This document shows positions 55-35,741 of a stretch of 36,093 nt of DNA, piece after piece. Each line of letters opens with the position of its first letter. Position 1 is the first letter of the stretch. This DNA is from Nitrosopumilales archaeon (lineage in GTDB: Archaea > Thermoproteota > Nitrososphaeria > Nitrososphaerales > Nitrososphaeraceae), in the NCBI GenBank assembly GCA_044507735.1, contig JBIQJB010000023.1:1-36093 (forward strand), written 5' to 3'. A program made the position numbers and the translations under genes. Below the pieces are notes generated by a model. It worked only from the letters and a program-made list of their open reading frames with translations, ran no database searches and was not told the origin of the DNA.

Positions 55-3000
55 GTTTGAATCGAACTATTATAGGATTGAAAGCTGCATGACATGCACC
101 ATGCCATAGCGTCACACCTGGTTTGAATCGAACTATTATAGGATTGAAAGTTGGTCTTTGAACCTGTAGTCCACCTCATACTTTAGGTTTGAATCGAACT
201 ATTATAGGATTGAAAGGATGTTCTACGCAAGTGCAAATGAACCGGGAGATATGTTTGAATCGAACTATTATAGGATTGAAAGATACGTTTTCTATTCCAT
301 AAAATGTCATGTTCGTGGGTTTGAATCGAACTATTATAGGATTGAAAGAAGGCAGAGAGTGTTCTTTCACAGCTCATAAAGGAGTTTGAATCGAACTATT
401 ATAGGATTGAAAGATCGCCTTCTTTGGTCATTGAGAGGACTAGACGCTCGTTTGAATCGAACTATTATAGGATTGAAAGCACAGACGACTGATCCAAAAA
501 CAAACTGTGCGGGTCGTTTGAATCGAACTATTATAGGATTGAAAGTGATCTGAGAATACGTGGCCTGCCCGCCGAGGGCCCTGTTTGAATCGAACTATTA
601 TAGGATTGAAAGGCCTTCAGATTGAGATCGACGGCAACTGGCTGGAAAGTTTGAATCGAACTATTATAGGATTGAAAGCGCAGCGTGATGCAGTATTTCC
701 GCTCATAGCACTCCGTTTGAATCGAACTATTATAGGATTGAAAGTTCCTTCCTGCACTCATCGCTGCATACGGCATGGAAGTTTGAATCGAACTATTATA
801 GGATTGAAAGGTGGTTTAATCGGTATGTTCTTGTAACCTCTTGGGGGTTTGAATCGAACTATTATAGGATTGAAAGACAACATCACGGAGGGCAAACAGA
901 AAATGAGATCAGGTTTGAATCGAACTATTATAGGATTGAAAGTAATCTCTGACATGGAATTTATCGCCTATGTTGTCGGTTTGAATCGAACTATTATAGG
1001 ATTGAAAGAAAGCCGACCTTGCCCGACTACGGACAGTGCGGTAAGTTTGAATCGAACTATTATAGGATTGAAAGTTTCAAAAGTATCCAGCCAGTCCTTG
1101 GCCAGATTTACGGTTTGAATCGAACTATTATAGGATTGAAAGAGATCAGTGCAGACGCTTGGAATAGGGCAGCTAGAGGGTTTGAATCGAACTATTATAG
1201 GATTGAAAGACCAATACGTTGATTGTGGTTGAATCCCGTAGCTCTGTTTGAATCGAACTATTATAGGATTGAAAGTGATCTCTAGTTGAGCAGAGGAAGA
1301 CACCTTCGCAGGTTTGAATCGAACTATTATAGGATTGAAAGAAATAACCCCCACGTGGACAACGCAGGACGAAGGGGGTTTGAATCGAACTATTATAGGA
1401 TTGAAAGAGCGTCCTCTTCATTCGGGGGGAACTCGATTACTTGTTTGAATCGAACTATTATAGGATTGAAAGTCCCATCGCTGACAACAGTGGCATGATT
1501 GCTTCTATGTTTGAATCGAACTATTATAGGATTGAAAGCCGAGCCACATTGTTTGCAAAAAAGGAGGATGGTGTGTTTGAATCGAACTATTATAGGATTG
1601 AAAGTCAGGTGTCTTCGGGGTAGATACTAGGATGATGATCGTTTGAATCGAACTATTATAGGATTGAAAGGGCCATCATCAGCTTCAGTATAGAATTCGG
1701 CAGTGCGTTTGAATCGAACTATTATAGGATTGAAAGTACCTAACCACAGTAATGTAAAACAGGCCAGCATGCGTTTGAATCGAACTATTATAGGATTGAA
1801 AGGCGGCAGGAGGTTCTACACTCCGCTGTTTGCCTGGGGGTTTGAATCGAACTATTATAGGATTGAAAGAAAGCAGATCTTGGGTAATGAGCCGCGGGTG
1901 TATCCGTTTGAATCGAACTATTATAGGATTGAAAGTTCAACTTACGTGGGCTGTTGATGGGTGGTGCTGGCGTTTGAATCGAACTATTATAGGATTGAAA
2001 GCACAGTCAGTTTGGATCAGTCGTCTGTGCGGGTCTCCGTTTGAATCGAACTATTATAGGATTGAAAGAATCTCGCACCAGCACAGAGCAAAGAATCGCA
2101 GCAAGTTTGAATCGAACTATTATAGGATTGAAAGCTGGATCAATCAGGTCAGGTTCAGTTCAGTTCTTCGGTTTGAATCGAACTATTATAGGATTGAAAG
2201 ATCAGCCCTCGTAGATTGAACGGGTCTAGTGTGTTGGTGTTTGAATCGAACTATTATAGGATTGAAAGCAGGGTGATGCGACAATCACACCCGTATACGC
2301 AATGTTTGAATCGAACTATTATAGGATTGAAAGTAGTCCGATTCAAACTCTGCAAGTTGGCAAACTGTTGTTTGAATCGAACTATTATAGGATTGAAAGT
2401 CAAATGTGCCACTCCCCTTCATGTCTAGACATTGTGTTTGAATCGAACTATTATAGGATTGAAAGATGGATCGACATGATTGGCTAGCCATTCCTTACCC
2501 TGTTTGAATCGAACTATTATAGGATTGAAAGTCGAGCAGTTCTGGAAGCCTGCTGTAGATTATCGCGTTTGAATCGAACTATTATAGGATTGAAAGTCGT
2601 GCCAAAGACTTCATGTTTCGTCCATGAAAAGCGTTTGAATCGAACTATTATAGGATTGAAAGTCAAGTATGAACCCTACAAGTACGGCGAAGGTAGTTTG
2701 AATCGAACTATTATAGGATTGAAAGATAGAATGCAGGCAACAGAACTACATTCCCAAAAATGTTTGAATCGAACTATTATAGGATTGAAAGGACGATGAA
2801 GAACAAGATGATAGTTACGACTGCGAGGTTTGAATCGAACTATTATAGGATTGAAAGGCAGCGGCCTCCGAGGGAGTCGGCCTTTGCGACTATGTTTGAA
2901 TCGAACTATTATAGGATTGAAAGTTGCGAGAATTTCGGGCTAGTCAAAATCAAACAAGTGTTTGAATCGAACTATTATAGGATTGAAAGTTGGTCGAGTT

Positions 3001-4314
3001 TAATGCTGCGCTGGTCTGCGAGGTTTGGTTTGAATCGAACTATTATAGGATTGAAAGGTGAATGGCATGTCTGCGTCTACCCTGTCTACCCTGTGTTTGA
3101 ATCGAACTATTATAGGATTGAAAGCACGCCCGTCTTTTTGTCCTGTGTCTTTTCGACTTCGTTTGAATCGAACTATTATAGGATTGAAAGTACTTGTAAG
3201 CATGGCCGCTTGCAAGCGACGTAAACTTGTTTGAATCGAACTATTATAGGATTGAAAGTACTTGTTGCTTCGTGATCAAAACATGGGCAGCGGTGTTTGA
3301 ATCGAACTATTATAGGATTGAAAGTGCCGAATTCAGAATTGGTCAAGAAATGTGAGGAGCAGTTTGAATCGAACTATTATAGGATTGAAAGGAACGAAGA
3401 CGAAGACCTTCAGATAGCGGCAGAGATGTTTGAATCGAACTATTATAGGATTGAAAGGTCTGCTGCGTCTTTTGGATCGAAGTTCTCTCCAGCTGTTTGA
3501 ATCGAACTATTATAGGATTGAAAGCACCCAATTGCGGTCAAGGTATCGCAGTTTTTTAACGTTTGAATCGAACTATTATAGGATTGAAAGGCGCATGAAC
3601 TATCCTCGCTGCATATCAGGGTAGATGTTTGAATCGAACTATTATAGGATTGAAAGTACTCTACCATGTAGCCAACAAAGAGACAGAGCCCTGTTTGAAT
3701 CGAACTATTATAGGATTGAAAGTCGGTAAAGTCGCTACTGCTAACACTAATCTCTGCCGTTTGAATCGAACTATTATAGGATTGAAAGATAACACAATGT
3801 CAGCATCCGCAATCGGTGTAAGAGGTTTGAATCGAACTATTATAGGATTGAAAGACGGGCAATGTGCTTAGACGAACCATGCTGAAGGTTTGAATCGAAC
3901 TATTATAGGATTGAAAGTTAATCAATTTCTCTTGGGCGATGCTTTAGAAAGGCGTTTGAATCGAACTATTATAGGATTGAAAGATGGCACACAAGTTTAT
4001 CAAAGGCAAGCTGCGAGATGTTTGAATCGAACTATTATAGGATTGAAAGAAAGACCTAATAAGACCAATGTTACAAGCAGGCTGCCCGTTTGAATCGAAC
4101 TATTATAGGATTGAAAGCAATCTATGCGAGCTCGTTGGAGTGAAGGGATCGAGTTTGAATCGAACTATTATAGGATTGAAAGACTGAATTTTGCGATAGT
4201 CTACCTTTAACCGGTTTAGTTTGAATCGAACTATTATAGGATTGAAAGTCGGTGCGCAGGCTCGGGGTGAATTTGCGCGCAGGAGTTTGAATCGAACTAT
4301 TATAGGATTGAAAG
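55..4314 (+). CRISPR. CRISPR array, 65 repeats / 64 spacers (33-38 bp); repeat GTTTGAATCGAACTATTATAGGATTGAAAG
   Basis: Repeats counted by hand from 55 to 4285 with ~66-bp period, all apparently identical. The 3' ATTGAAAG end is typical of Cas6-processed class 1 (type I-B/III-like) repeats. No cas genes in window. Confidence 0.99.
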
Positions 4315-4328
4315 CTAGTCTGGCTTCC

Positions 4329-4732
4329 GATCTTGGCAAGCAGACAAGCCAAAAGCTTCACAACTTTTGGAGCCACAACTACATCGTGAAGAGAATCAAG
4401 GAGCGCGGCGAAGAATATATGATATTGCAGAAGAAGTATCTGAGAAGGGGACATCAAAGACATGCTGCATCTGTGGACAGCAGCATAACGACAGACACAA
4501 TGGGAGAATCCACAGGGGATTGCATTACTGCAAGGAAAACAATGTAATAGTCAACGCAGACGTGAGCGGCGCGTACAACATTATGTTGGAAAAGGTAGCT
4601 GCAAATGGCTCTTCTTCTCCTGGATGTCTTGAGCAAGATACAACACAACAGGAGAGGAACAGTAGTAGCAGTAGCAGGCATTTGGCTATGCCCCTAATGC
4701 TCAGGTGGGAGAAGTACCATCGATGGCATTAG
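4329..4732 (+). pseudogene. tnpB: 3' remnant of IS200/IS605-family TnpB (RNA-guided nuclease), 5'-truncated and frameshifted
   Basis: DLGKQTSQKLHNFWSHNYIVKRIKERGEEY, a 2-bp shift in ATATAT at ~4415-4420, then DIAEEVSEKGTSKTCCICG (Zn finger) and NADVSGAYNI (RuvC-III). N-terminal domains and RuvC-I absent. Confidence 0.88.
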
Positions 4733-5827: not shown

Positions 5828-7372
5828 ATGTCACAGTTGCGGCGTCTGCTTGCAATATTTATGATTGTGGTGCTCTTCACCCTGCTCGCTCCCGTTGTAT
5901 CGTATGCTCAGGATGCCGAGCCAGTACACTTGCAAATTACCGAAGTTGAGCTCAACCCGCAAACAGGACCGCAGAGAATACAATGGATCGAGTTCTTTAA
6001 TCCAACAAACGATACCTTCACAGTCCTCGTAACTGTTACGACAGCTAGAGGAGCGCCAACCTTCGAAGCTGGTGCTGCGACTTTTTCGCCGGGCTATGCG
6101 GTTCTGACAATTTTCGAATTTGTCTCTGAGCCGCGTGTAAAAGTACACGGAGAACTTGGCTTTCCAAAGAACGGCACCTCGCTGGTAGTATATGTGGATG
6201 GCCGCGAGATCGCCAGAACTCCCGAGATATCAGATACCTTCTCTGATTCCCGGACATGGCAGTATGACCACGAAAGCCGGAGGTGGGCATTTGCAGAGTC
6301 TACAATGAACTGGCATGCAAGTAACATAGAGGAAAGGAGTATTGATGCAATAACTAGTCTCAGGCCTCTGGCAAGGTACGAGGCCAAAGATAGTGCATAT
6401 CTGCGCTCTATGGACTGGTCCCAAGACACACTGGTGTATTCTGCCGAAATAAACGGGAGGGTAGATATCTGGAGCATAGACACTGCAGATATCTCTGCAA
6501 AACCGCAAAGGCTGGAATTTGGACAGGAAATTTTCACTCCAGAGGGTCCAAGACTAAACCACGATGCGTCAAAGCTTCTGTTTATAGGGGCAACTGCCCC
6601 GCCCGGATCGCCCGACAGGCTGCCCGCGCTTTATGTCTCGAATGCCGACGGGACTGAGCTTAGGCAAATAGCGCTCAATGTTACCCGCGCTGACTGGGTA
6701 AATGCAACTGCCATCCTTTATTCCCAAAAAGAGTTGATAGACTCTGCTGCAGACGCAGGCACTCTATTTGTTTTTCTCAACCTGGAGACGGGCGAAGAGC
6801 TGGTCAAGAGAGAACCCGGATCCCTCTGGCTTGCCGAGGTCAGCCCGTCGGGCAAGCTTGCCTTGGCCATACGGCCCGTTAACTACTATGAGAGCGAATA
6901 CGTGATTGTGGAACTACCATCTTTTGAGGTGAGAAAACTGGATGTGCATGTTGCGACTGAACACTACTGGGGCGGAGGATACAGCCAACAAGAAGAGTTC
7001 CACTGGGCTGCCGATGACAGCCACCTCTTTTACATCAACCCCGAGGCCTTTGGAGCGGTATCAATCTACAGGGATGAAAATGCTGGCGTTTACAAGTCAG
7101 ATTCAAAAATTGTGTTAAGAACGTTTGATCCAAACAATATAGACTATTCGGGGAATAGACTTGCTTACGTTGCAAATCCCGTGCTGGGCGTCGATGGGAA
7201 AAGCATTGCATTCCTATATCCCGGTGACCATAATCGGGACTTTCCTGCGCAGATAATGATAGGTCAGCTTGCAGTGACGGTTCCAGAATTTGGCTCGATT
7301 GTGTTGGCATTGATGATGGCGACGGGAATGGCGGGCGCCGTCATTATTGCATATCGGCTGAGGGCTGCCTAG
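5828..7372 (+). CDS. Surface protein: signal peptide, lamin-tail-like domain, TolB-like beta-propeller, PEFG-CTERM anchor
   Basis: Signal peptide (...VSYA-Q); ITEVELNP...WIEFFNPT; propeller repeats (LYVSNADGT, VSPSGK); C-terminal VPEFG + TM + basic tail. Confidence 0.85.
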   Translation: MSQLRRLLAIFMIVVLFTLLAPVVSYAQDAEPVHLQITEVELNPQTGPQRIQWIEFFNPTNDTFTVLVTVTTARGAPTFEAGAATFSPGYAVLTIFEFVSEPRVKVHGELGFPKNGTSLVVYVDGREIARTPEISDTFSDSRTWQYDHESRRWAFAESTMNWHASNIEERSIDAITSLRPLARYEAKDSAYLRSMDWSQDTLVYSAEINGRVDIWSIDTADISAKPQRLEFGQEIFTPEGPRLNHDASKLLFIGATAPPGSPDRLPALYVSNADGTELRQIALNVTRADWVNATAILYSQKELIDSAADAGTLFVFLNLETGEELVKREPGSLWLAEVSPSGKLALAIRPVNYYESEYVIVELPSFEVRKLDVHVATEHYWGGGYSQQEEFHWAADDSHLFYINPEAFGAVSIYRDENAGVYKSDSKIVLRTFDPNNIDYSGNRLAYVANPVLGVDGKSIAFLYPGDHNRDFPAQIMIGQLAVTVPEFGSIVLALMMATGMAGAVIIAYRLRAA

Positions 7373-9265: not shown

Positions 9266-9518
9266 GACATAATAATGGACACTAGCAAAAGCCCTGCAGG
9301 CGCGTATGCGCGATACACAATGCTCAAGTAGACTTGTAGACGTTATTGCCACCACAGCTCAGATTCTCGCAGCGCTTGGACCCTGCACGTCTTTGCGCTT
9401 GTCTTGGTCCTTTGATTTGGGAAGTGGCAAAACCCTCAAAAGCAACAAATGCTGATCGTATGCCTGGTTGATAGGCAGCAGTAGGTTCAGTGAGCACCCG
9501 CCGGATAAGATAGGTCCA

Positions 9519-11621
9519 ATGAGGACGAGGATGGTACTCGCTATTTCTTTGATTATCATTTTGATATTGCCCTCACAGTTACTGCTTGCGGCAGCAGATG
9601 CCGACTCTACAACAATTCCTATCGAAATAGATAGCCAAGATGGTTACTACTCATACAGCATAGCTGTCAACGAGAGAACCAATACGGCTTATGCCACGCA
9701 TCCAAATTCCGACTATGTCTCTGTAATTGACACAGCTACAAACAGCATAATCAAGACCATCCAGACAGATCATACTCCCATCGGAATAGCAGTAAACCCA
9801 AACACCAACTTTATCTATGTTGGAAATAGCGGTTCTGGCATTGTTTCTGTGATAGATGGCTCTGTCAACGAAATCGTCAGTACGCTCAAAGTCACAAATC
9901 AATCCGGCTTTTACGCGATTGGCGGGGTTGCGGTGAATCAGAGGACGGACAAGGTATACGTGTTGACAAATGAAATGGGCTCGTCGGGCAATGAACGGTC
10001 CCACGCCCTGATCACAGTGATCAATGGCAGCACCAACAAAATTGAACAGACATTCAAGGTTGATGATCTGCGCTTGGATTTTGATGTTATCGATGACGCA
10101 AGGGGACTGGCCGTAAATTCTGAGACCGGAATGATCTATGTATCCATGACTTCTGGTTCCCTCTATGTTATCGATGGCTCTGACAACAAGGTCATGACGA
10201 GCGTTGTCCTCGGAACACGCGGCCATGGCGAAATGCCAACCTATGTTGCAGTAAACGAGAAAACTAACACTGTATTTGTCTCCTTGTTTGGTTCCCATTT
10301 TGTCTCGGTCATTAACGGCTCGGACAACAGAGTGATAGGTTCGGTCGACATAGGCGAGCTAGACCCGCAGGGACTCGCAGTTGACGAGTCGGCTGACAGC
10401 CTGTTCGTTGCAAGCGCAGGCGGCATTTCTATAGTAAATACCGCCTCATTGGAGCTTCACAAGACTGTTGCGGCAGGACGATTTCCGGTTGGGCTCGCAT
10501 ACAGTTCAAACAACAGATCGATCTATGTCGCCAACTGGGGCTCAAAATTCTTCTCTGTAATACCGGCTCCAAAAGCGCCTGAGCCGTCTGCCCCTTTTGC
10601 TCCAATAGTCATAACAAAGGTTGACCCCTGGGCCCCCTTGAGGGGATTGGACGAGAGAACAAGGCCGTGTCTACCGGAAGACAGCCTGGGTCAAGTGGAT
10701 GGCTTTGCGTACGCCTGGATTGAGCTCACCAACATCAAGAATAAAGCGATTGCAACTACCGGGCCCTTTACAATTGAGGTAAGGCCAGTCAATCCTCTCG
10801 GTATTGGGGGAGCTGGATCTGATTCTGAATTTCCTGGCAGGCTGGTGCTTGAACCAAACGAAAGCTGCATCATTTCCACAGCCAACCTTTTCAGTACAAG
10901 GCTGGGGGTGGGAGGCAGCGAGGGCAGCGGCCCGCCGCCTGGTGCGGATAAAGACGGCGCCACCGTCTCCATCAATTATTCAATAAACGATCCATCAATC
11001 TGGGGCGGAGAATATAGCGATAGCACGCCCGCTCTGTCCGATCCTTACGGAGACCTCGCATATTGGGAGCTGGATGCCGACAGCGGCCGGTGGATATTCA
11101 GAGACGACCTTGCCGGCATGCGAAACCTGACCAACATTACGCTAACACAGTTGACTTCGCCGGGGTCCGTACCCGTCATCGTAAACCTGACAATGCCTGA
11201 AGAAATCAGGGCACCATCTGTCGTCAAACTTGAGCTGAGCTTCTTCAATGCCACCACGAGGCAACTCATCAACGATAATGTGACAACCGTCGTCTACGAG
11301 ATCGAATACAAAGATTCGCCACTGCCCAATGCTACAGAGAAGTACAACGGTCAAACAAGCACCGGGAGTGACGTAAAGTATTTTGTAGCAAACCAGACTG
11401 GCTCAATTGACATAGCAGTCAAGATTACTGCCTTGAACAGGGAGGCTGCCGGCGGGTCCTTTGATCACCTTGATACCCCAGAGACCGCGCGGTTCACCGC
11501 GGTTGTGGTCCCGGAATTTGGAACGGCATTGGCGGACATCATCATTGCAGCGATATCGCTGGCTGCCATGGTTCTGGCTGTCAGAATCAAAATGTCTGGT
11601 GCCCGAGCTTTTTCGGGTTGA
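9519..11621 (+). CDS. YncE/YVTN beta-propeller surface protein with lamin-tail-like module and PEFG-CTERM anchor
   Basis: Repeats such as IAVNPNTNFIYVGNSGSGIVSVIDG; signal peptide from ATG 9519 or 9531; C-terminal VVPEFGT + TM + basic residues. Confidence 0.9.
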   Translation: MRTRMVLAISLIIILILPSQLLLAAADADSTTIPIEIDSQDGYYSYSIAVNERTNTAYATHPNSDYVSVIDTATNSIIKTIQTDHTPIGIAVNPNTNFIYVGNSGSGIVSVIDGSVNEIVSTLKVTNQSGFYAIGGVAVNQRTDKVYVLTNEMGSSGNERSHALITVINGSTNKIEQTFKVDDLRLDFDVIDDARGLAVNSETGMIYVSMTSGSLYVIDGSDNKVMTSVVLGTRGHGEMPTYVAVNEKTNTVFVSLFGSHFVSVINGSDNRVIGSVDIGELDPQGLAVDESADSLFVASAGGISIVNTASLELHKTVAAGRFPVGLAYSSNNRSIYVANWGSKFFSVIPAPKAPEPSAPFAPIVITKVDPWAPLRGLDERTRPCLPEDSLGQVDGFAYAWIELTNIKNKAIATTGPFTIEVRPVNPLGIGGAGSDSEFPGRLVLEPNESCIISTANLFSTRLGVGGSEGSGPPPGADKDGATVSINYSINDPSIWGGEYSDSTPALSDPYGDLAYWELDADSGRWIFRDDLAGMRNLTNITLTQLTSPGSVPVIVNLTMPEEIRAPSVVKLELSFFNATTRQLINDNVTTVVYEIEYKDSPLPNATEKYNGQTSTGSDVKYFVANQTGSIDIAVKITALNREAAGGSFDHLDTPETARFTAVVVPEFGTALADIIIAAISLAAMVLAVRIKMSGARAFSG

Positions 11622-12811: not shown

Positions 12812-13176
12812 ATGGAGGTGGAAAGAGGTAGAGGTGAAGCGGTCGACGCCATGAAACTGCATACAAAATATTACTTGCGGTTTTTGTGGCTGTGCCGACT
12901 CACAGGGCTTGCGGACAGCCAGCTGCGCATGTTCATAGCTTCGATCGAGTCGGGAGAACAAAAGCGACTAGCGACTATATCTTCAAACTACTGTGTGTGA
13001 AACGCGCAGGGAAGGACATTCTCTACAGCATCGAAGTGTATTTTGTAGTGATGGACAACAACAACCACAATGATGGCAGTAGAAAGTCTAGGCCCCATCT
13101 CGTGCTAAAGTCTCCGCTGCTGGTTGACGCCCCTCGACGGAACAGCAAGAGGCATATCCGTGCAGCAGGCAGCTGA
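12812..13176 (+). pseudogene. Hypothetical gene split by a 2-bp slip in a (TG)4 tract
   Basis: ORF 12812-13000 ends ...SNYCV*; removing one TG at 12992-12999 joins it to KRAGKDILYSIEVYF... ending 13176 (~120 aa). Confidence 0.4.
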
Positions 13177-13350
13177 CGCCCTGGCACAACACACCCATGG
13201 AAGGAGAACCTGCCCAATTACGCTAATCCAAAAGTGATGTATTTGCAAAAATCATTGAAATCTGGCCACCGATCACATGCCGCAGGAAAACACCTTGGTA
13301 ACGGCATGGCTTGGCGAAGCTAGCATTGCTGTTGCCGCTGTCATAACGTT

Positions 13351-14694
13351 TCATATTTCATGGTCCACTGCTATCACAACAAACCTCGTGGCAATGCTCA
13401 CCTTTTTCAAGAACTTCTCCACCTCGCTCTTTCTATCTGTCGCGAGCTGCTTCACGTCGTCAAGATCGACGGTGCCGGAAGCAAGTCCGAGGAATTCTAC
13501 CTGCTTGGGGCTGAGGCAGAACACCTGACTGCCGTTGCTCCCGTCGTCGCCGTCGCTGCGTATCACATTTACTGGCCCGAACTCTTCTATCCTGCACACG
13601 ACACCGGTGGACTTGTCGACGATCTGCTGCTTTCCGCAATGGAGGCAGTGTATGATGGACTTGTTGCTGTCAGGCAATATTACGCCGCTGGCACCCTTCT
13701 TGTCGCTTGTGGCAGCAACCGGCAGATGAGATCCAATGTCGCCGCCATGATCATCACCATCGCCGCTCCCGGCACCGTACTCCAGCATTGCACCGCCACC
13801 CGCAGCCGGCCCCGTTGACGTCCTCTGGACAGCAGTTGATGACGATGGTGATGGCGGCGGTGATCGCGGGGTTGCCATCATGGCCGCAACGGTCTTTTTC
13901 TGCTTGAGCGCCGCCGCCATCGCCATAACCTGGTCCGGCGTAGGAAAGACAAAGCGCTCCTGTGATCTTAGCATGTTGAGATAGCCCAGTATGTTTTCGA
14001 TCAGCGTCTTCATCCTCCGCTGTATCTCTTCCATTCGCTCCCGCTCGCCCCTGCCTGAAGGTATGTCGCTGCTGCACGTTTCGTACACGGCTATGAAAAA
14101 GTGCGGTGGAACCTCCACGTGTGGAAATACAGCTGCCTTTTCCATGAGATATTTCTGCAGCATCGCCCTCAGCTCCGCATCGTACGCGCCAAGGATCAGC
14201 TGCACCGCGCGCTTCATCACCTCGCCGATAGGCATAGCTGCGTACGGGTCGCTTACCCCTTGCTTTGCAAGGAACGCTATCGCGTTTGCCATATTCAGGG
14301 GGTTGAGAGGCGACGTGACATTGCGCTTGACGTGCTCTGATACTACCTGTGCAACGTCGTCTGCGACGAGTTCATCGCTCACCACGACTTCAGCCAGTCC
14401 TGCAGCCCTGCATGCGTCGACCCGCGCATGGCCGTCTACGATGTAGAACTTGTCTCCCACTCTGGCCACTGCAATGCCGTCGATGGGCCGGTCAGCTTCT
14501 ATCGTGGCTGCTATGTTGTCAATGAATTGAGTCGTGTGCAGCCTTACCCTCACCGGGCTTGGCAAGAGTGCCGATATTGGTAGAGTATGTGTACGCGCTG
14601 GCATGCTATTACTATTGCTCCTGCTGCCGTTTAGCTTCTCTTCATTTTCCTTTTTGCCTGACGTCGATGATGATTTCATACCTGCGACGCTCAC
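13351..14694 (-). CDS. ParB/Srx N-terminal domain protein with low-complexity linker and C-terminal CxxC domain
   Basis: LPISALLPSP...IAVARVGDKFYIVDGHARVDAC; C-terminal CLHCGK; GTGA overlap with the upstream gene. Confidence 0.85.
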   Translation of the reverse strand: MSVAGMKSSSTSGKKENEEKLNGSRSNSNSMPARTHTLPISALLPSPVRVRLHTTQFIDNIAATIEADRPIDGIAVARVGDKFYIVDGHARVDACRAAGLAEVVVSDELVADDVAQVVSEHVKRNVTSPLNPLNMANAIAFLAKQGVSDPYAAMPIGEVMKRAVQLILGAYDAELRAMLQKYLMEKAAVFPHVEVPPHFFIAVYETCSSDIPSGRGERERMEEIQRRMKTLIENILGYLNMLRSQERFVFPTPDQVMAMAAALKQKKTVAAMMATPRSPPPSPSSSTAVQRTSTGPAAGGGAMLEYGAGSGDGDDHGGDIGSHLPVAATSDKKGASGVILPDSNKSIIHCLHCGKQQIVDKSTGVVCRIEEFGPVNVIRSDGDDGSNGSQVFCLSPKQVEFLGLASGTVDLDDVKQLATDRKSEVEKFLKKVSIATRFVVIAVDHEI

Positions 14695-15545
14695 CTCCCA
14701 CCAGTGTTTTTCTCCATCTTGCCAAGCGCGATCCCAGTCCGCGCCGCATGCGCGGACAGCACCGACTGCCGCTGCCCTGGCAATGCACCATCGCTGCTAC
14801 TCAAGAACCGCCTGGCAATGATTCCATGCATCCACATTGCAGAGGCTGTGTACCGCATCCCGTCTCCAGGCTGCATCGGCAGCCCTTCGACCCTGGTAGA
14901 CACCATGATGCGCAGATGGTAGAGGTCCCGCATGCGTGTGTGTCTTGTGCCAAATGCCGACGACACTGCACTTGCTGCCTCGTATTCGTCCACCGTGCTG
15001 CAATAGCAGCAGATCGAATACAACGCCGCTTCGGCTGCACTTATGACCCTGGGTTTTGTCATACACAGCTGCCTGTAGACCTTGCAGAACACCTGCCATG
15101 CACACTCGGCATCAACAGGAGACATGGCGAGCCTGTCGCAAGCGTTTGAAAATGCACTGAGGTATCTGCTTGCGCTGGCATGATCTGAGCCATTCTTGGC
15201 GATCTTGAGGCTTCTGCTGTCAGAGAGCGAAAGCATCTCTTGCATCTTGGCATTCGTAGTGGCCGCTTCTGCGCTGCCAAGCTGGTGGTTCACGTACAGG
15301 TTGACCTTTGACTTTGTTGTTTGTTGCCGCTGCGTTTGGATGGCCACCGCAGCGTTCTCTTCAGCCGCATCAGGCGAAAGCACCGCGCCACACTTGACAC
15401 ACACATGCTCCAAGCCGTCGGGTGTCAATCGCGGATCGTGCGTGCATTCATCATAATGGCTGGCGTGACTGGCCGGAAAAGTGGCAGGAGTGGAGATAGA
15501 ATTGTTGTTGTTGTTGTTCTTGACGTTTGACTTTGAAATACTCAC
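14691..15545 (-). CDS. Divergent TFB/TFIIB-like protein (Zn ribbon + cyclin-like repeat)
   Basis: CTH...DGLEHVCVKCGAVL ribbon; FSNACDRLAMSPVDAECAWQVF...AEAALYSIC resembles TFB cyclin repeat 1. Confidence 0.7.
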   Translation of the reverse strand: MSISKSNVKNNNNNNSISTPATFPASHASHYDECTHDPRLTPDGLEHVCVKCGAVLSPDAAEENAAVAIQTQRQQTTKSKVNLYVNHQLGSAEAATTNAKMQEMLSLSDSRSLKIAKNGSDHASASRYLSAFSNACDRLAMSPVDAECAWQVFCKVYRQLCMTKPRVISAAEAALYSICCYCSTVDEYEAASAVSSAFGTRHTRMRDLYHLRIMVSTRVEGLPMQPGDGMRYTASAMWMHGIIARRFLSSSDGALPGQRQSVLSAHAARTGIALGKMEKNTGGR

Positions 15546-15561
15546 ATAATGCTAGATACGA

Positions 15562-15599
15562 GGTGTAGCACATAAAATTGCCTATGGTGTAGTACATAA
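15562..15599. repeat. 14-bp direct repeat GGTGTAG(C/T)ACATAA, 24-bp period
   Basis: 15562-15575 and 15586-15599, 13/14 identical, directly upstream of the TFB-like gene. Confidence 0.75.
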
Positions 15600-15725
15600 G
15601 CATATCGCTGTATCATGCGAGTAGCTGCATTTCTCTTTTGATTCATGCACTAGAGTATTTTGTAATAAACGCGTATGTGAGAATCAACTTTTTATTCTGT
15701 CTGTCGTCAAGGCAAGAGTTGCTGC

Positions 15726-15751
15726 GTACACCAACGAACCCGTTGGTGTAC
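15726..15751. repeat. Perfect 11-bp inverted repeat GTACACCAACG-AACC-CGTTGGTGTAC
   Basis: Read directly; intergenic between the TFB-like and PrgI-like genes. Confidence 0.9.
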
Positions 15752-15965
15752 ACATGGGTTTCGAGTCTAAAGTAGGTTCTCTAGCCTTGAAAATGGATGT
15801 GTTTAGGTAGAAAATGGCTCCAATCCCATCAGTGCTGCCGGTTACCTGTGGGCCGTACAGCAATATGGTGAGTACCATTCAAAGTGAGACTCGAAGACAA
15901 ACTCGGGTGATGTGAATATCGATGTTGGGCCGATTCTTGCTTTAGCAGCCGCCGCCTATTTTTCC

Positions 15966-16340
15966 TCAGACGACCGTCTTGGTTGGTGTTGCGTCCGCAA
16001 ACATCGCAGCGATGTGTTTCTTCTCAGTTGTTCGACTGGAACGCGTGGCAAAGAACCTGATTGCCGACATCAAGTATTCCTCCGCTGTCATCACACGCGG
16101 CCTGTAGAATGCCATTATCAATGACACACCTGCCACCGCAACAGCGGAGTATGGGTTGACAGTCGCCAGCCCGTATGCAAGAAGCAATCCTGTGAATAGC
16201 AGGGCGAGTTGCTTCATAGTCAGCACTACGAATCCTATCGAAAATATCGGCTCAGAGAAAACTCCCATGCTGCTGAACCATATCACGTCGATGTGTTGGA
16301 TCGGCGCAGATTGTTGTGATGTTGTTATTGTGGCTGTCAT
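15966..16340 (-). CDS. PrgI/VirB3-like small membrane protein (124 aa)
   Basis: EPIFSIGFVVLTMKQLALL, two TMs, YRPRVMTAEEYLMSAIRFF; adjacent to VirB4. Start reassigned to ATG 16340. Confidence 0.7.
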   Translation of the reverse strand: MTATITTSQQSAPIQHIDVIWFSSMGVFSEPIFSIGFVVLTMKQLALLFTGLLLAYGLATVNPYSAVAVAGVSLIMAFYRPRVMTAEEYLMSAIRFFATRSSRTTEKKHIAAMFADATPTKTVV

Positions 16341-16376
16341 GTTGTTATACCTTCTCGCATAGGAAGTGCAGGCCGC

Positions 16377-16404
16377 CTTAAAAGACGCCGGCACATTGGG
16401 GTGC
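16377..16404 (+). promoter_or_regulatory. Promoter CTTAAAAG-N8-ACATTG-N6-GTG of the VirB4-pilin operon
   Basis: Motif and spacing shared with other element genes. Confidence 0.6.
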
Positions 16405-18561
16405 GTGGGCAAAACTAGCGGGAATGAGGACAAGAGCAACAAGCTGGGTGGCAGGATATTTTCATCATTCCGGATGGGGAGGAAGCTAGGACAGGTCCGG
16501 CGCCGGCAGGATGAGCCGAGTGCGAATTTGAATGCCGCTGGAAAGCAAGGATCAGTGCAGCGCAACGGCCCGGCGCAGGCACAAAAGCGCATGCAAAAAC
16601 AATACACATATGCGTTTGAAATCCGGCCTACCAACTTTTTCTCGCTGCCAGATGAAAAACAGCGTGTCGTGCTGACGCGCTTTTTGCAGCTGATAAACGC
16701 TGCTACAAGCGACGGCGCTCCTGTGCTGCTTACTGTGGCAAGGGCACGGGTAGACTTTGAAGGCACAGGCTACAGCACTGTGCGCACGTTCGTGTCCACC
16801 ACCGGCAGGGACGGAGACGGCAGGAGCGCCGCACTTTACCACTATCTCTCGGCTCTTGGATTCAACCCGGAGCCAGTGGGCAATGACGGCGGTAGCAGTA
16901 ATAATGAATTGCCTGTCATAGACGTCATATCGGAGAGCCCGCGCAGCGTGTCTGTGCGCTACGGCTATCATGGCGCTGGCGATAGTCGCGACTACAACTA
17001 CGGCCATATCAGGTGCAGGACCTTTGTGCTGATTGCTCCGAGGTACTCGATGCAGCCAGCATGGGTACACTCTCTCATGCAGCACTGCGACCTTGTGCGA
17101 GTCAGGGTAGAAAAGATAAGCCCGGAGAGGTCCATAGCGATGGCGCAAAAGTACAGGTCGACGGTGGAGGTGGCGCTGCGCAGGAACCCAAACCTGACAC
17201 ACAAGTTCCAGCGCGCTTCAGCATTGTATGAGGGACTCCAGTCACAGTCGACGGCGCTCTTCAACGTCGGCCTCTCGTGCACAATATTTGCAGCAGACGG
17301 GAAGGAGCTCGACACAAGGAGCAGGGAATTTGTAAAGGCCATGAACGCGTCGGAAATGCGGTTTGCCGACGTTCCGTTTGTCCAGCGCGAGCTGGCAGCG
17401 GGCACCTGGAGGAAGAAAGACGCGATAGCTGACCTTGGCACTCTGGCAGTGGTATACCCATTCGTGTCTGCAGACCTGCTGGAAGTCGGGAAGGGGATAT
17501 TGCTTGGCCAGAACGTGGAGACAGGGTCTCCTGTCGTCTACGACTATATGATGCGAAGCAACTACAACGTGGTGCTGCTCGCCTCGTCGGGCGCAGGCAA
17601 GTCGGTCACCGCCAAGACGATACTAAAGCGCGTGACAGAAAAGCATCCCGGTGCATATGTGTACGTAGTTGACCCGCAGGGCGAATATGAAAGGATAGCC
17701 GACTATTTCGGCCTTTCAGTGGTGAAACTCACAGACCCTGTCACGGGAAAGGTACGCCGGATGGGGCTTGACCCCTACGCGCTGTTTGAGCCGCTTGACG
17801 TTCCGCAGGTCATTGCAGACATTGCCGGAGCGGACGATATTGCAAGAAAAGAGATAACGGCAAGATCGACCTCTGCCAGGTCCATATTCGACCTTTACTC
17901 GCAAGTGAGCGGCGATACAAAGAAGCACCTGATGCAGCTGGTGGAGGGACCCTTCTCAGAGCTGTTCAGGGAAGAGTCTGGAGCCGACAATAGTGCCGCC
18001 ACCGCTGCAGGCATGCTCTCCCGGACTATTATTTCACTGCAAGGCGCTTACGAAAACAAGGAGAGGCAGGCGATACTGCTCACGCTGGCGCTTGCAAAGG
18101 CATGGAAGTACCTCATATCCGCACCGGCACACGTGCCAAAGGTCCTCGTGGTGGACGAGGGATGGCTTGTGTTCAAGATACCCTCTACCGCCCGCTTTAT
18201 TGAGATGATTGCGCGCACCGGACGCAAGCTGAACGTGCTATTCCTGTTCATCAGCCAGAACCCCGAAGACGTGATAAAGCAGGAGACGGGAAGGGCGATT
18301 CTGGAGAACGCTGACACCAAGATATTGCTGAGAAACACCGAGATAGCCGCTCACATGGTGGCCGAGACCCTGTGGCTTTCGCAGCGTGAGAAAGAGATGC
18401 TTCCGGTGCTGCAGAACGGCGAGGCGCTCATGTTTGCTGGCGAGCACAGGCTGCGGGTAAAGATAACGCCGAGGTCGCAAGAAGAGCTCCGGGTATTTTC
18501 GACGAATCCTGTGGCCTCTGTGAACGATGGAAATGCGACAAGTATGGTGGATAAGAGATGA
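16405..18561 (+). CDS. VirB4-like type IV secretion/conjugation ATPase (~718 aa)
   Basis: Walker A ASSGAGKS, VVDPQGEY, Walker B VLVVDEGW, RTGRKLN...ISQNPED, ILENADTKILL; N-terminal IRPTNFFSLPDEKQ domain. Confidence 0.88.
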   Translation: MGKTSGNEDKSNKLGGRIFSSFRMGRKLGQVRRRQDEPSANLNAAGKQGSVQRNGPAQAQKRMQKQYTYAFEIRPTNFFSLPDEKQRVVLTRFLQLINAATSDGAPVLLTVARARVDFEGTGYSTVRTFVSTTGRDGDGRSAALYHYLSALGFNPEPVGNDGGSSNNELPVIDVISESPRSVSVRYGYHGAGDSRDYNYGHIRCRTFVLIAPRYSMQPAWVHSLMQHCDLVRVRVEKISPERSIAMAQKYRSTVEVALRRNPNLTHKFQRASALYEGLQSQSTALFNVGLSCTIFAADGKELDTRSREFVKAMNASEMRFADVPFVQRELAAGTWRKKDAIADLGTLAVVYPFVSADLLEVGKGILLGQNVETGSPVVYDYMMRSNYNVVLLASSGAGKSVTAKTILKRVTEKHPGAYVYVVDPQGEYERIADYFGLSVVKLTDPVTGKVRRMGLDPYALFEPLDVPQVIADIAGADDIARKEITARSTSARSIFDLYSQVSGDTKKHLMQLVEGPFSELFREESGADNSAATAAGMLSRTIISLQGAYENKERQAILLTLALAKAWKYLISAPAHVPKVLVVDEGWLVFKIPSTARFIEMIARTGRKLNVLFLFISQNPEDVIKQETGRAILENADTKILLRNTEIAAHMVAETLWLSQREKEMLPVLQNGEALMFAGEHRLRVKITPRSQEELRVFSTNPVASVNDGNATSMVDKR

Positions 18562-18983
18562 CTCTGCAGTCTGAACGGCGAGCCGTAAGCCCTGCCATAG
18601 CCACAATCGCACTCGTTGCAGTAGCTGCGGCTGCAGCTGCCATCGCGGGCTCTGACATGATGAGAAAGACCGCGTTGTCGCAGCCTGCAATGCCTGTTGA
18701 AATTTCCGAGATATTCATGATAAAGATATCCGATACGAAGGCTCATTTTCACGCAGTCTACAAGATGCAGCCCGGCTGGACGACAGCGGCATCATCGGTG
18801 AATGCATCGTTCAAGGACGATTCAGGTGCCACGGTATCGTTCAACCTGCCGACTGGCTCTACCACATTCGACTCGGTGATCAAAGCACAAGTCAGCATTG
18901 GCCAGAGGTACAACTTTATTATCATAGCTGCTGGGAGCGATGGAAATAGCGCTACAGTAACAATGCCTGTCTTTACGAGATGA
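18558..18983 (+). CDS. Archaeal type IV pilin (class III signal peptide)
   Basis: ERRA-VSPAIATIALVAVA; ATGA overlap with the VirB4 stop. Confidence 0.85.
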   Translation: MTLQSERRAVSPAIATIALVAVAAAAAAIAGSDMMRKTALSQPAMPVEISEIFMIKISDTKAHFHAVYKMQPGWTTAASSVNASFKDDSGATVSFNLPTGSTTFDSVIKAQVSIGQRYNFIIIAAGSDGNSATVTMPVFTR

Positions 18984-20572: not shown

Positions 20573-21511
20573 CTATTGCGGGATCGGTATCCTCATCTTC
20601 AATGAATCAACATAACGATCGGACAGGATCTTAAGGAAGGAAAAGTTTCCAGGAATAGATGTGCCCTCTATTAGCTGGTGAAGTTCGGTTGCTAGCCTGC
20701 TTATGGGCTGTTCCTGCGATGATCTGATTCCACTCAATACTACCTTTCTGATCAAATCACGTCTGGATTTCCTAATCCTGGTGTACGGCACCTTGGCCAG
20801 AGCGGCCATCACAAAGATGTTGGGCATGTCTTCCCGTACATCCTCTTCAATATCCTCCCAGTCGTCTTGTATATCCAGGAGCGCCTGATTGTAATGTAGA
20901 ACTGAAGTAGCATTTTCGCTAAAGCCCGGGAGCACCGCGTCTAGAATCTTTGCATAAACAAGTGAGGCATCTGAGGATTTTGATAAGATGAAATGCCTAA
21001 TCTCTGGATACGAGAAGGTACCCTTCTCTAGTATGCGACGTTTCGTAATCTGCTCGAATTTCCAAAACTCTGAAAACTGCTTCAGTGAATAATCCATTGA
21101 ATAAACTAGGTGCTGAATATTGCCTTCAGATCTGGCCAGTTCAAATGCCGACTTGCGCGCTTGTTTTGCTTGCATGGCGTATCTGTCATTCTTGGTCTCG
21201 TAGAATTTGTCCAAGAGTAGAACATGCCTGGTTAACGACCTTACTATCCTGTAGACCGATAATGCGCAAGGCACATTTTGTGTGTCAAAGTATGCGATTA
21301 GAAAGTAGGTAGGATCCTGTGCATTTTCATCAATTGCTGGGTAAGAACCACCTAAACTGCGGTCATAGCTGCTTAGCAATGCGCTTAACGAGACCATCTG
21401 CTGTACAAAATGAGAGGCGTCTGAGATAGAGCGCAGATCGCTTGCCAAGTTGGAGATCTTTTCCAAGTATGCCCTGTCTTCAGAACGTCCAAGCTTGGCT
21501 TTGATCACCAT
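20573..21511 (-). CDS. Class 1 isoprenoid synthase/prenyltransferase-fold protein
   Basis: Helical protein with LLDIQDDWEDIEED...PNIF (DDxxD); the first Asp-rich motif appears degenerate (LLLDKFYE). Confidence 0.6.
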   Translation of the reverse strand: MVIKAKLGRSEDRAYLEKISNLASDLRSISDASHFVQQMVSLSALLSSYDRSLGGSYPAIDENAQDPTYFLIAYFDTQNVPCALSVYRIVRSLTRHVLLLDKFYETKNDRYAMQAKQARKSAFELARSEGNIQHLVYSMDYSLKQFSEFWKFEQITKRRILEKGTFSYPEIRHFILSKSSDASLVYAKILDAVLPGFSENATSVLHYNQALLDIQDDWEDIEEDVREDMPNIFVMAALAKVPYTRIRKSRRDLIRKVVLSGIRSSQEQPISRLATELHQLIEGTSIPGNFSFLKILSDRYVDSLKMRIPIPQ

Positions 21512-31031: not shown

Positions 31032-31175
31032 GGTGAGAAGTACGGAAGAAGGCTTCTCCTAGGGCTGGCCAAGAAATACACCGCAGCAGTACTCGGCCCA
31101 CCCAAAAAAAGGGAATCGGCATTGGTGGCCTTTTGCTCGCACCCTTGCTTAAAAGCCCACATCTCCTTTTGTGTC

Positions 31176-31649
31176 ATGAACTGCGAGCGTGAACACAGGC
31201 GACGGGCAGTATCCCCTGCAATCGCAACAATAGCGCTCATAGGGCTTGCGATTGTGACCGCGGGCGCCGTAGGCACTTTTGTCATGGACCAGTCGTCAAC
31301 TCTGAAGCAGGAGCTCAGCGCGGACATTCTAGAAGCACACCTTGTCCAGCTGAGAAAGAATGCGAACGACTGGAACGCAGGAATCTCGTTCAAGAACACC
31401 GGGACTGTCGATATTACAAATGTAAGAATAGATATTCGCCGAGATGACGGCACCGTCTGGACGATATCCGGCGCACCGACCGGCGGCAGCGCATCGCCGG
31501 GTGAAACAAACCGGATTGATAATACTGCAAGCACAGCCCAGATCTCGCCTGGACGAAGCTACACCTTTTCCATCGCAATAACTGCCAGCGTTGCGGGTGA
31601 CACGTACACAAGGACATACATCCGCACGGTGATCGCAGAAGGGCTGTAG
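31176..31649 (+). CDS. Archaeal type IV pilin (157 aa)
   Basis: RRRA-VSPAIATIALIGL; KNTGTVDITNV; CTTAAAAG 20 nt before ATG 31176. Confidence 0.88.
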   Translation: MNCEREHRRRAVSPAIATIALIGLAIVTAGAVGTFVMDQSSTLKQELSADILEAHLVQLRKNANDWNAGISFKNTGTVDITNVRIDIRRDDGTVWTISGAPTGGSASPGETNRIDNTASTAQISPGRSYTFSIAITASVAGDTYTRTYIRTVIAEGL

Positions 31650-32524: not shown

Positions 32525-32775
32525 GGTCAAAAAAAGCCAGGCGAACTTTTAAGGCAAGTTTTTTTCTGACAGAGAGGATGTGAAAAAGGTGTTGGTCGAG
32601 AAGAAGGAGCTATTGACCATCGTCCCTTTCATCAACATATCCGAATTCTGCTCCCTTCTCGGGGTTGCTGGGTAGGGGTATTTGCACAAAGATTTCTCTA
32701 CTCTCAATAGATGCTCAAATCTGGTTACGGATGGAAATAAAAACAGTCAATTTCTTCTATGCAAGAGTGTTTTTA

Positions 32776-32813
32776 TATGCATAATGCACTGGATATCATA
32801 TGCGTTATGCATA
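32776..32813. promoter_or_regulatory. 13-bp inverted repeat, candidate AbiEi autoregulatory operator
   Basis: TATGCATAATGCA-N12-TGCGTTATGCATA (12/13), overlapping the TTTTATAT box (32771-32778) and ATG 32807. Confidence 0.7.
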
Positions 32814-34012
32814 CGGAATCCATAAGCATTAGAGATAGGATAACTCGTAAGCTGGAGCTACTAACTGAACATAGGATAGTCTCAGCTGAAGAAGATGTCC
32901 GAATTTCTAATATTGGAACTATAGATTTTGTATTTAAGGACGATCATGGAAATCGCTATTTTGCTGAGGTCAAACGGGGACGAATCACTGCTTTTGATGT
33001 AGGGCGTATTGTGAGGTCTGCAGAGCGCACTTACGACATGTTTCCCTCATCAAAATTCTTCGTCTTTGTAGACAAAATCGATCCAACTAGCAAAAAAGTG
33101 CTAGACAAGATGAAAATAAATGTCGTCGTGTTGAAACGTCTGCCACAGTTATCTAACGAGAGGAGATCGTCCTCAACAGTACAAGTCAAGAGTGGCAAAC
33201 TGCAACTTTCTCCAAGAGAACAGGAAGCATACTTTCTTCTCCAACGAAGGGGTATCAAAGTTGCTACCCCCGAAACTTTAGCAGAGGAATTGAAAATTTC
33301 TGCAGTATACGCAAGGAATCTACTTGCGAGTCTTGCAAGAAGTGGCGTATTATCAAGATTCGGTAGAGGAAAGTATGTGGTACTATCTGCTGACATCGTA
33401 TATCATCACAGAGGATATACAACAGACCCGCTTTCGATACTGGATCAGTTGTTCGGAGACGAACCATATTATGCTGCTTACGCCACCGCACTATACATTC
33501 ATGGGCTTTCGCACCAAATTCCCTTTCAAACTCAGGTAGCAACTATTAGACAAAAAAGGTCGATGCGAGTGGGAAACTCTCTCATAAAGTTTGTAAAGAT
33601 TAGTCCATTGGAATTGTTCGGATACGAGGAACGACGATATCTAGACTCATTCGTAAAAGTATCAGATATTGAAAAGACCATCATAGACTGCATACAACGT
33701 CCGGATTTGTGCGGTGGCATTAGCGAAGTAACGCGAAGCATGGCAGAAGCACTAGGTAGGATAGACGTCGACAAATTCCTCTCCTATATTTCCAAGATTG
33801 CAAATGAGGCAGCAATTCAAAGGCTGGGCTTTATCCTTGCTAAATTAAGATTTGAGAAATATGAAGTAGATTCGAGACTTCTTAAAGAACTGAAAAATAG
33901 GAAATTCCGTCATCGTCATCTTTTGGATTTTACACAGCCAAAGAAAGGGAAGTTTTCAAAAGAGTGGAAGATAATAGAAAATGTCAATTGCATGAGTTGG
34001 AAGTATGATTAA
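32807..34012 (+). CDS. AbiEi-family type IV antitoxin with extra N-terminal PD-(D/E)XK nuclease-like domain
   Basis: IDFVFKDDHGNRYFAEVKRG; wHTH LARSGVLSRFGRGKY; YATALYIHGLSHQIP; VSDIEKTIIDC...PDLCGG. Confidence 0.88.
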   Translation: MHTESISIRDRITRKLELLTEHRIVSAEEDVRISNIGTIDFVFKDDHGNRYFAEVKRGRITAFDVGRIVRSAERTYDMFPSSKFFVFVDKIDPTSKKVLDKMKINVVVLKRLPQLSNERRSSSTVQVKSGKLQLSPREQEAYFLLQRRGIKVATPETLAEELKISAVYARNLLASLARSGVLSRFGRGKYVVLSADIVYHHRGYTTDPLSILDQLFGDEPYYAAYATALYIHGLSHQIPFQTQVATIRQKRSMRVGNSLIKFVKISPLELFGYEERRYLDSFVKVSDIEKTIIDCIQRPDLCGGISEVTRSMAEALGRIDVDKFLSYISKIANEAAIQRLGFILAKLRFEKYEVDSRLLKELKNRKFRHRHLLDFTQPKKGKFSKEWKIIENVNCMSWKYD

Positions 34013-35693: not shown

Positions 35694-35741
35694 GCAGGGC
35701 AATGTTGCATGTGCTTTTAAGCGACTGTTTCATTTCTTCCT
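35694..35741. promoter_or_regulatory. 48-bp bidirectional promoter centred on CTTTTAAG (35714-35721)
   Basis: Exactly 20 nt to ATG 35693 (-) and 20 nt to GTG 35742 (+). Confidence 0.6.

Follow-up and report, generated by a model that had tools for sequence, protein, structure and literature searches.

A TFIIB-like/ParB-like gene pair of a thaumarchaeal integrative-conjugative element as a candidate element-encoded regulatory module

Archaea hold many paralogues of the transcription factor TFB; to our knowledge, sigma-like promoter specificity among them is largely an open question, and archaeal conjugation outside the Sulfolobales is uncharacterised. In the survey of thaumarchaeal integrative-conjugative elements (ICEs) by Krupovic et al. 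(2019; PMC6563490), all identified elements were reported to encode TFIIB homologues. In most of them the TFIIB homologue directly preceded a ParB-like gene, with which it probably formed one operon, a coupling that appeared to be specific to these ICEs. The same paper calls the second gene a ParB-like partitioning/segregation protein and reports that no relaxase was found in the elements, and its supplementary table places the ParB-like genes of six ICEs in arCOG01875, named 'ParB-like nuclease domain'. A role of such TFIIBs in altering promoter specificity was proposed by Abby et al. (2018; PMC5797428), and Makarova et al. (2016; PMC4858521) described TFIIB homologues, including a single-cyclin form, in archaeal type IV pilus loci. 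In a literature search on ParB and TFIIB in archaeal conjugation, only PMC6563490 and PMC5797428 were relevant. Here, we analyze a gene pair of this kind, a TFB-like gene followed by a ParB-like gene, on a 36,093-bp contig (C12) of a 2.3-Mb, 97%-complete thaumarchaeal genome; the window is this whole contig.

Three better-characterized systems offer points of comparison. TFB3 of the Sulfolobales has no C-terminal helix-turn-helix (HTH) and depends on its Zn ribbon; it occupies promoters and switches on the ups and ced genes. It is chromosomal and induced by ultraviolet light, a coiled coil replaces its core domain, and its Zn ribbon has four cysteines (PMC6101594). BisD of ICEclc from Pseudomonas putida is an ICE-encoded ParB-like protein that binds as well as hydrolyses cytidine triphosphate (CTP) through its GxxR motif, has an activator domain of its own and, together with BisC, activates the promoters of transfer competence (PMC12409273). 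KorB of plasmid RK2 is a ParB-family repressor that forms a CTP-dependent sliding clamp and acts with KorA (PMC11790492). An earlier, sequence-only annotation of this DNA (the first-pass annotation) had cited truncated TFB3 and KorB-like ParB proteins as precedents for a regulatory pair; the TFB3 analogy stands in this literature, and KorB and BisD are both regulators of the kind invoked. KorB also serves partition with a ParA, IncC.

The pair on C12 is a member of the published TFIIB/ParB cassette, and the promoter-specificity idea is already in print as well; the interpretation of the first-pass annotation is therefore partly supported but not original. New here are a survey of the coupling, the separation of the TFB-like clade, the dissection of the TFB-like domains, and the placement and enrichment of a TATA-like box, CTTAAAAG, on transfer genes. 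The best explanation of these data, to which we assign a probability of about 50%, is that this conserved ICE operon acts as the element's own regulatory module.

As a single sequence, the TFB-like protein was barely recognizable. Its best Pfam match was Zn_Ribbon_TF (E 0.11, below the cut-off), its only PHROGs match was an unnamed family (E 0.0064), and it had no match in the PDB; a single-sequence NCBIfam scan and a PDB search with a 9-sequence profile were nearly blank. The profile of its eight close relatives found 20 proteins among 1.84 billion representatives, among them two bona fide two-repeat TFBs, P0031 (E 3.9e-7) and P0035 (E 1.1e-4). When the family profile was aligned to the TFBs of the host itself with hhalign, the match had a probability of 98.8% (E 4.5e-17; 98.5% with a deeper alignment). 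A 43-sequence profile searched against the PDB matched human TFIIB chains from solved pre-initiation complexes (E 1.4e-10), yeast TFIIB (E 3.2e-9), the archaeal TFB core 1AIS (E 2.9e-4) and the archaeal Zn ribbon 1PFT (E 1.4e-3).

Domain-wise hhalign resolved which parts of TFB are kept. Residues 32-60 matched the TFB Zn ribbon (probability 96.7%, E 3.9e-10) and residues 126-215 matched cyclin repeat 1 (97.6%, E 4.1e-12). The linker at residues 61-125, which the full-length alignment crosses with gaps, had no similarity to the B-reader/linker of the host TFBs (E 0.92), and the C-terminal residues 216-284 had none to cyclin repeat 2 (E 0.065, probability 0.8%); in longer relatives, the alignment reaches only the first helices of repeat 2. 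Profile homology thus upholds the Zn ribbon, the single cyclin repeat and the missing B-reader and second repeat that the first-pass annotation had described. Within the family, 24 of 43 sequences have CxH as their first Zn knuckle and at least 8 have CxxC, and N82, L83 and G90 of the linker are almost invariant across all 43. In a quick tree, a single branch with an SH-like approximate likelihood ratio test (SH-aLRT) value of 100 divided the 43 TFB-like rows from the 9 canonical TFBs. Elsewhere in the host genome, 10 open frames contain 20 TFIIB-repeat matches in all; C12 has none. Collectively, these comparisons indicate that the TFB-like protein is a divergent, reduced TFB/TFIIB homologue with a Zn ribbon and one cyclin repeat, and that its family forms a clade separate from the host TFBs.

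In canonical TFB, the Zn ribbon docks RNA polymerase and the first cyclin repeat docks the TBP-DNA complex, the reader/linker is needed for promoter opening, and the second (HTH) repeat reads the TFB recognition element (BRE). Because the B-reader/linker and the BRE-reading repeat are lost, a stand-alone sigma-like factor is argued against and an auxiliary factor fits better. Of the possible sigma-like switch put forward in the first-pass annotation, identity and context stand: a divergent TFB, carried by the element and coupled to a protein of the ParB fold. The same pattern of loss and retention would be expected of a competitor, and the TFB-like protein could then be a decoy or repressor that cannot open promoters and vies for TBP-DNA or RNA polymerase with the TFBs of the host. 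Its effect would be to silence the transfer genes during integration of the element or to damp host transcription during transfer. However, truncated TFB3 activates despite similar losses (PMC6101594), and the near-invariant linker residues suggest retained function rather than decay. We consider a decoy distinctly unlikely.

The two genes are physically coupled on C12. The TFB-like stop codon overlaps the GTG start of the ParB-like gene as GGTGA, which bears out the GTGA coupling noted in the first-pass annotation, although other gene callers start the ParB-like gene at the in-frame ATG at 14679, 11 nt past the TFB-like stop. Depending on the start, the genes overlap by 4 nt or lie 11 nt apart, and they are tightly joined in both cases. 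Both are kept as proteins at identities from 99% down to about 20% and are therefore not chance open reading frames (ORFs); the two minus-strand ORFs that had been proposed, of 284 and 447 amino acids, are confirmed at their full extent (Table 1).

The coupling holds well beyond this contig. Among 401 sampled Nitrososphaeria genomes, the ParB-like profile matched 50, in four families. In all 29 loci retrieved with this profile search (L012-L040; L and G numbers denote related loci and other genomes), the ORF directly upstream on the same strand matched the TFB-like profile; L012 is probably the same locus as L010, with equal scores and relative coordinates, and L033 is truncated where its contig ends. 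With a simple rule for choosing start codons, the junction in 31 loci ranged from -137 to +11 nt and was a 1-nt overlap in nine, and coupling was tight in every locus measured. A VirB4 match was present in 41 of the 50 ParB-like-positive genomes and in 64 of the 351 others, a comparison that is descriptive only, as kin are not independent and the 351 include three unpublished genomes. As read from the table of matches, the ParB-like and VirB4 genes lay within 35 kb of each other on one contig in 19 genomes, 12 of which had them within 4 kb, and they were more than 100 kb apart in five genomes.

The assignment of the second gene to the ParB/Srx fold, also made in the first-pass annotation, was confirmed by several profile searches. 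The single sequence matched Spo0J (E 0.017), two ParB-like partition families of PHROGs (E 3.2e-8 and 2.4e-7) and, far below the cut-offs, the NCBIfam families parB_part (E 9.6e-4) and Noc (about 1e-3). A 32-sequence profile matched Noc/ParB chains in the PDB (E 7.5e-5 to 2.7e-4), and its alignment to Noc extended into the HTH region; Pfam ParB_N was reached at E <= 0.01 by 3 of the 32 family members. The ESM Atlas model of the protein (predicted local distance difference test score, pLDDT, 0.61) aligned only to clusters with ParB_N with or without HTH_ParB/KorB, over residues ~25-265/315; the template modelling (TM) scores were only 0.32-0.40 by query, and this alignment was taken as a lead. 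In the family, the GxxR phosphate motif reads DGHAR rather than GERR (G88 in 32/32, R91 in 27/32), and the ENxxR motif is not conserved, H121 (32/32) and N125 (31/32) being fixed instead. The N-terminal domain is followed by a low-complexity linker and then by a conserved C-terminal domain whose cysteines vary across the family. These matches indicate that the product has a ParB/Srx N-terminal domain with a GxxR motif, a helical middle and a family-specific C-terminal domain. A complex prediction from the ParB-like and TFB-like alignments scored 0.03 against a mark of 0.32, which has no bearing on binding either way.

A ParB fold also invites a reading without transcription, in which the pair would be a partition module and the TFB-like protein a site-specific DNA adaptor for the ParB-like protein, tethering or segregating the excised element. 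The strict two-gene coupling recalls adaptor-ParB operons; AspA is reportedly such an adaptor for ParB on the Sulfolobus plasmid pNOB8. The partitioning/segregation name given to the second gene by Krupovic et al. (PMC6563490) points in the same direction. However, none of the four AAA_31 or ten CbiA matches of the genome lies on C12 or on C19, a further contig of the same genome (G000), so that the absence of a nearby ParA-type ATPase reported in the first-pass annotation holds for both contigs. Repeat and palindrome scans found no repeated centromere-like sites, and the retained Zn ribbon, canonically an RNA polymerase contact, would be useless to a pure DNA adaptor. We therefore regard partition as unlikely.

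A further reading starts from the motif itself, as the DGHAR of the ParB-like family presumably resembles the DGxxR variants of ParB-fold nucleases. The ParB-like protein would then nick or handle element DNA in place of a missing relaxase, guided by the TFB-like protein, in line with the lack of a relaxase and with the nuclease name of arCOG01875 in the ICE survey and its supplement (PMC6563490). The closest sequence and model matches, however, are DNA-binding proteins of the ParB, Noc and KorB types with an HTH part, and a DNA-processing module appears very unlikely.

If the pair is instead a regulatory module, CTTAAAAG is a candidate box for its target promoters on the element. It occurs four times on C12, where 1.29 copies are expected, a count reached by 5 of 100 shuffles, and its four copies precede VirB4, two pilin-like genes and an ORF of 280 amino acids (Table 1). 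Its density on C12 (0.11 per kb) is about 8-fold that in the genome (32 copies, 0.0138 per kb). At exactly -28..-21, the box was found at 4 of 659 candidate starts on C12 and C19 and at 0 of 22,131 candidate starts in the host; allowing a spacing of 20 or 21 nt, 5 of the 6 copies on C12 and C19 were promoter-placed, compared with 2 of 26 in the host. Host promoters instead carry boxes of the CTTAAATA (17 of 44 promoter-placed) and TTTAAATA (9 of 38) types, at a looser spacing whose centre lies about 2-3 nt further upstream. When promoter positions were scanned for 7-mers without bias, CTTAAAA/TTAAAAG came out as the top words on C12, and a k-mer scan of contig C13 of genome G277 gave TTTTAAG/TTAAAAG; such scans were noisy in AT-rich distant elements.

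The box recurs in related elements. There are three copies each in L008, L009 and L010, and the L009 promoter homologous to that of the 280-amino-acid ORF carries TTTAAAAG. Copies also cluster around the pair in two other genomes: in G243, 7 of 55 fall within 80 kb, and G277 has 6 of its 51 on a single contig of 59 kb. Thus, CTTAAAAG is a TATA-like, element-enriched, promoter-positioned box on transfer genes that is nearly unused in host promoters. A literature search for it returned unrelated papers only, among the matches listed. The first-pass annotation had joined to it a second promoter word, ACATTG, which was rejected: its 23 occurrences equal chance (22.97 expected). The composite CTTAAAAG-N8-ACATTG occurs three times in the genome, and two of these copies are homologous, lying upstream of VirB4 on C12 and on C19. 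Of the promoter motifs proposed at the outset, only CTTAAAAG therefore stands.

The promoter of the pair itself is of a different type. The TATA-like TTTTATGT ends 25 nt before the TFB-like GTG, is conserved, and differs from CTTAAAAG. The direct repeats TTATGTRCTACACC beside it are confined to this place in the window (2 matches, with 0.36 expected), and the block of about 60 nt that holds them is kept in L008 and L009, whereas the rest of the intergenic region is not. The repeats are a candidate operator. Farther out, about 180-210 nt upstream of the TFB-like gene, lies a perfect hairpin/palindrome with a 14-bp stem (15723-15754; RNA fold -24.6 kcal/mol, z -2.45). At the aligned place, L009 has a palindrome with changed arms and L008 has a different, imperfect one.

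From the identity, architecture and coupling of the two genes, their element context and the private box, we infer that the pair regulates the CTTAAAAG genes, and it probably helps to switch on the transfer genes of the element. In the sequence of events that we propose, host TBP and TFB would transcribe the pair's operon from its host-like TATA element. The ParB-like protein would then bind element DNA, the part that BisD plays for BisC. Alongside a complete host TFB, the truncated TFB-like protein would work as an auxiliary factor in initiation, like TFB3 in the Sulfolobales. The targets would be leaderless transfer genes (VirB4 and the pilins) that share CTTAAAAG at -28..-21. Among bacteria, BisD-BisC of ICEclc or KorB-KorA of RK2 would be similar. 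A more specific version, in which the two proteins form a two-part activator, the ParB-like protein loading on element DNA and delivering the TFB-like protein to private CTTAAAAG promoters that host TFBs do not serve, is tentative and, in our estimate, unlikely. If true, the ParB-like protein would be the first of its fold with a direct link to the basal transcription machinery, and the pair would be an archaeal equivalent of BisD-BisC.

Several observations weigh against a regulatory module of this kind. The TATA box is canonically read by TBP and not by TFB, and since the BRE-reading repeat is lost as well, there is no obvious structural basis for promoter choice by the TFB-like protein. Clamp behaviour of the ParB-like protein driven by CTP hydrolysis is doubtful, because the Glu (E120) and Arg (R124) of the ENxxR motif are each present in only 11 of 32 sequences. 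A search for parS-like palindromes common to the elements yielded only two weak families, none passing for parS. The enrichment figures for CTTAAAAG overstate independence, because the word was picked in the first-pass annotation from this very sequence and several of the related copies are homologous promoters. Finally, in the distant element lineage G133, enrichment of the related box CCTTAAAA is marginal, about 2-3-fold, with 5 of its 47 copies falling in two element regions of 40 kb.

The surroundings of the pair are those of a conjugative element. The VirB4 start lies 860 nt from the TFB-like gene, with a PrgI/VirB3-like gene between them, and the close homologues of both proteins of the pair are labelled Nitrososphaera sp. 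by their sources. A second, paralogous copy of the module occupies C19 (3-6000), where a ParB-like gene whose C-terminus is cut by the contig end is accompanied by two small membrane-protein genes and a VirB4 gene, the product of which is 86% identical to that of C12. A VirD4/TrwB-like gene was found only on a further contig of the genome, C21, and not on C12. No integrase family was found among the scanned ORFs of C12 and no tRNA gene on the contig, which at 36 kb may miss the ends of the element. These gene contents indicate that the pair belongs to a Nitrososphaera-type ICE of thaumarchaea.

Table 1. Coordinates of the gene pair, its domains, neighbouring genes and promoter boxes in the 36,093-bp window
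Feature	Position	Strand	Basis or remark
TFB-like gene, 284 amino acids, GTG start	14691..15545	-	ORF list; 8 close homologues; hhalign to host TFBs; PDB TFIIB chains with family profile
TFB-like Zn ribbon, residues 32-60, C-x-H ... C-x2-C-G	15366..15452	-	hhalign to TFB Zn ribbon
TFB-like single cyclin repeat, residues 126-215	14901..15170	-	hhalign to TFB cyclin 1, 82 columns
ParB-like gene, 447 amino acids from GTG 14694; alternative ATG 14679	13351..14694	-	ORF list; 12 homologues, 6 with precomputed PF02195
ParB/Srx N-terminal domain, residues ~34-150, DGHAR and H121/N125 motifs	14245..14595	-	Profile matches, column counts
ParB-like conserved C-terminal domain, residues ~335-447	13354..13692	-	Aligned across family
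Two direct repeats TTATGTRCTACACC, 24 nt apart, upstream of TFB-like gene	15562..15599	-	Second overlaps TATA-like TTTTATGT
PrgI/VirB3-like small membrane protein	15966..16340	-	Pfam PrgI E 2.7e-4, below cut-off
VirB4/TrbE-like conjugation ATPase	16405..18561	+	Pfam P-loop_TraG, AAA_10; NCBIfam VirB4-like E 3.8e-31, below cut-offs
Pilin-like gene 1	31176-31649	+	Pilin_N; UpsA-like E 6.6e-8, below cut-off
ORF of 280 amino acids	31682-32524	-	CTTAAAAG box upstream
Pilin-like gene 2	35202-35693	-	UpsA-like E 3.5e-4, below cut-off
CTTAAAAG box, 20 nt before GTG 16405 (VirB4)	16377..16384	+	Conserved at VirB4 of C19, L008, L009, G277:C13
CTTAAAAG box, 20 nt before ATG 31176 (pilin-like gene 1)	31148..31155	+	Motif scan
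CTTAAAAG box, 21 nt before ATG 32524 (280-amino-acid ORF)	32546..32553	-	Motif scan
CTTAAAAG box, 20 nt before ATG 35693 (pilin-like gene 2)	35714..35721	-	Motif scan

Cargo genes are also present on the contig. An AbiEi/AbiEii toxin-antitoxin pair (32759-34769; E 9e-13 and 5.4e-33) occupies a low-GC stretch between two of the CTTAAAAG-box genes. A protein of 717 amino acids (9468-11621) with NHL/YncE-type beta-propeller repeats and, as read from its translation, hydrophobic stretches at its N and C termini is probably a surface protein of the element. The ORFs at 5828-7372 and 20573-21511 were blank in searches against the PDB. In sequencing-run archives, near-identical DNA to 13000-18600 (at least half of the sampled words) was found in 20 DNA runs from 11 studies, labelled as soil, mangrove, compost and other metagenomes, one of which may be the source of the window DNA; no RNA run in this search held the stretch.

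The contig begins with an array of clustered regularly interspaced short palindromic repeats (CRISPR) at 55-4314, comprising 65 identical repeats of 30 nt and 64 spacers of 33-38 nt, in DNA of about 40% GC compared with about 50% for the rest of the contig. No cas gene family was found among the scanned ORFs of the window. The spacer at 151-186 matches 32/32 nt in an ORF of 585 amino acids beside the VirD4/TrwB-like gene (C21:2568-2599), and it also matches L009:15914-15937 (23/24 nt) and contig C13 of G277 (28/30 nt; L048:6383-6412). The array next to the element therefore includes a spacer directed at a gene conserved in conjugative elements. Two other spacers have a 20-nt stretch in common (479-498 and 2011-2030), oppositely oriented and with 100% complementarity. 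The short ORF directly after the array (4367-4732) has a Cas12f1/TnpB-like TNB domain (E 8.6e-9) and looks like a TnpB remnant.

The cassette offers a compact test case, with a reduced TFB, an always-coupled ParB-fold partner and, in this element lineage, a few transfer genes that share one oddly spaced TATA-like box. If the link between pair and promoters is true, it would show a mobile element redirecting the archaeal basal machinery; if it is false, the likely alternative is a device for partition or DNA handling built on a borrowed TFB scaffold.

Set beside known systems, the pair is closest to the cassette of Krupovic et al., with which it shares a TFIIB homologue directly upstream of a ParB-like gene on the same strand, proximity to VirB4, VirB3 and pilins, and a thaumarchaeal host; nothing essential differs. 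In their accessible text, neither PMC6563490 nor PMC5797428 gives a TFIIB domain dissection or a promoter motif. Compared with the canonical archaeal TFBs represented by the host paralogues, described in Pfam by PF08271 and two PF00382 repeats, the TFB-like protein has a homologous Zn ribbon and first cyclin repeat but no recognizable B-reader/linker or second repeat, falls below Pfam cut-offs and belongs to a separate clade. With TFB3, as described in the accessible parts of PMC6101594 and PMC6101591, it shares the status of a TFB paralogue that has lost the C-terminal HTH and kept the Zn ribbon, and a link to pili and DNA transfer, the CTTAAAAG genes here including VirB4 and two UpsA-like pilins. 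Compared by description only, it differs from TFB3 in keeping a cyclin repeat, in its CxH knuckle, and in being element-borne and ParB-coupled. Like KorB-KorA, the pair would combine a ParB-family regulator of a conjugative element with a small partner protein, but KorB represses (PMC11790492) and has a ParA, whereas no ParA match lies on C12 or C19. Like BisD-BisC, the pair joins an ICE-encoded ParB-like protein to a second element-encoded factor; that system is bacterial and BisC is not a basal transcription factor (PMC12409273), and BisD acts through CTP, whereas ENxxR is not conserved in the ParB-like protein of the thaumarchaeal pair.

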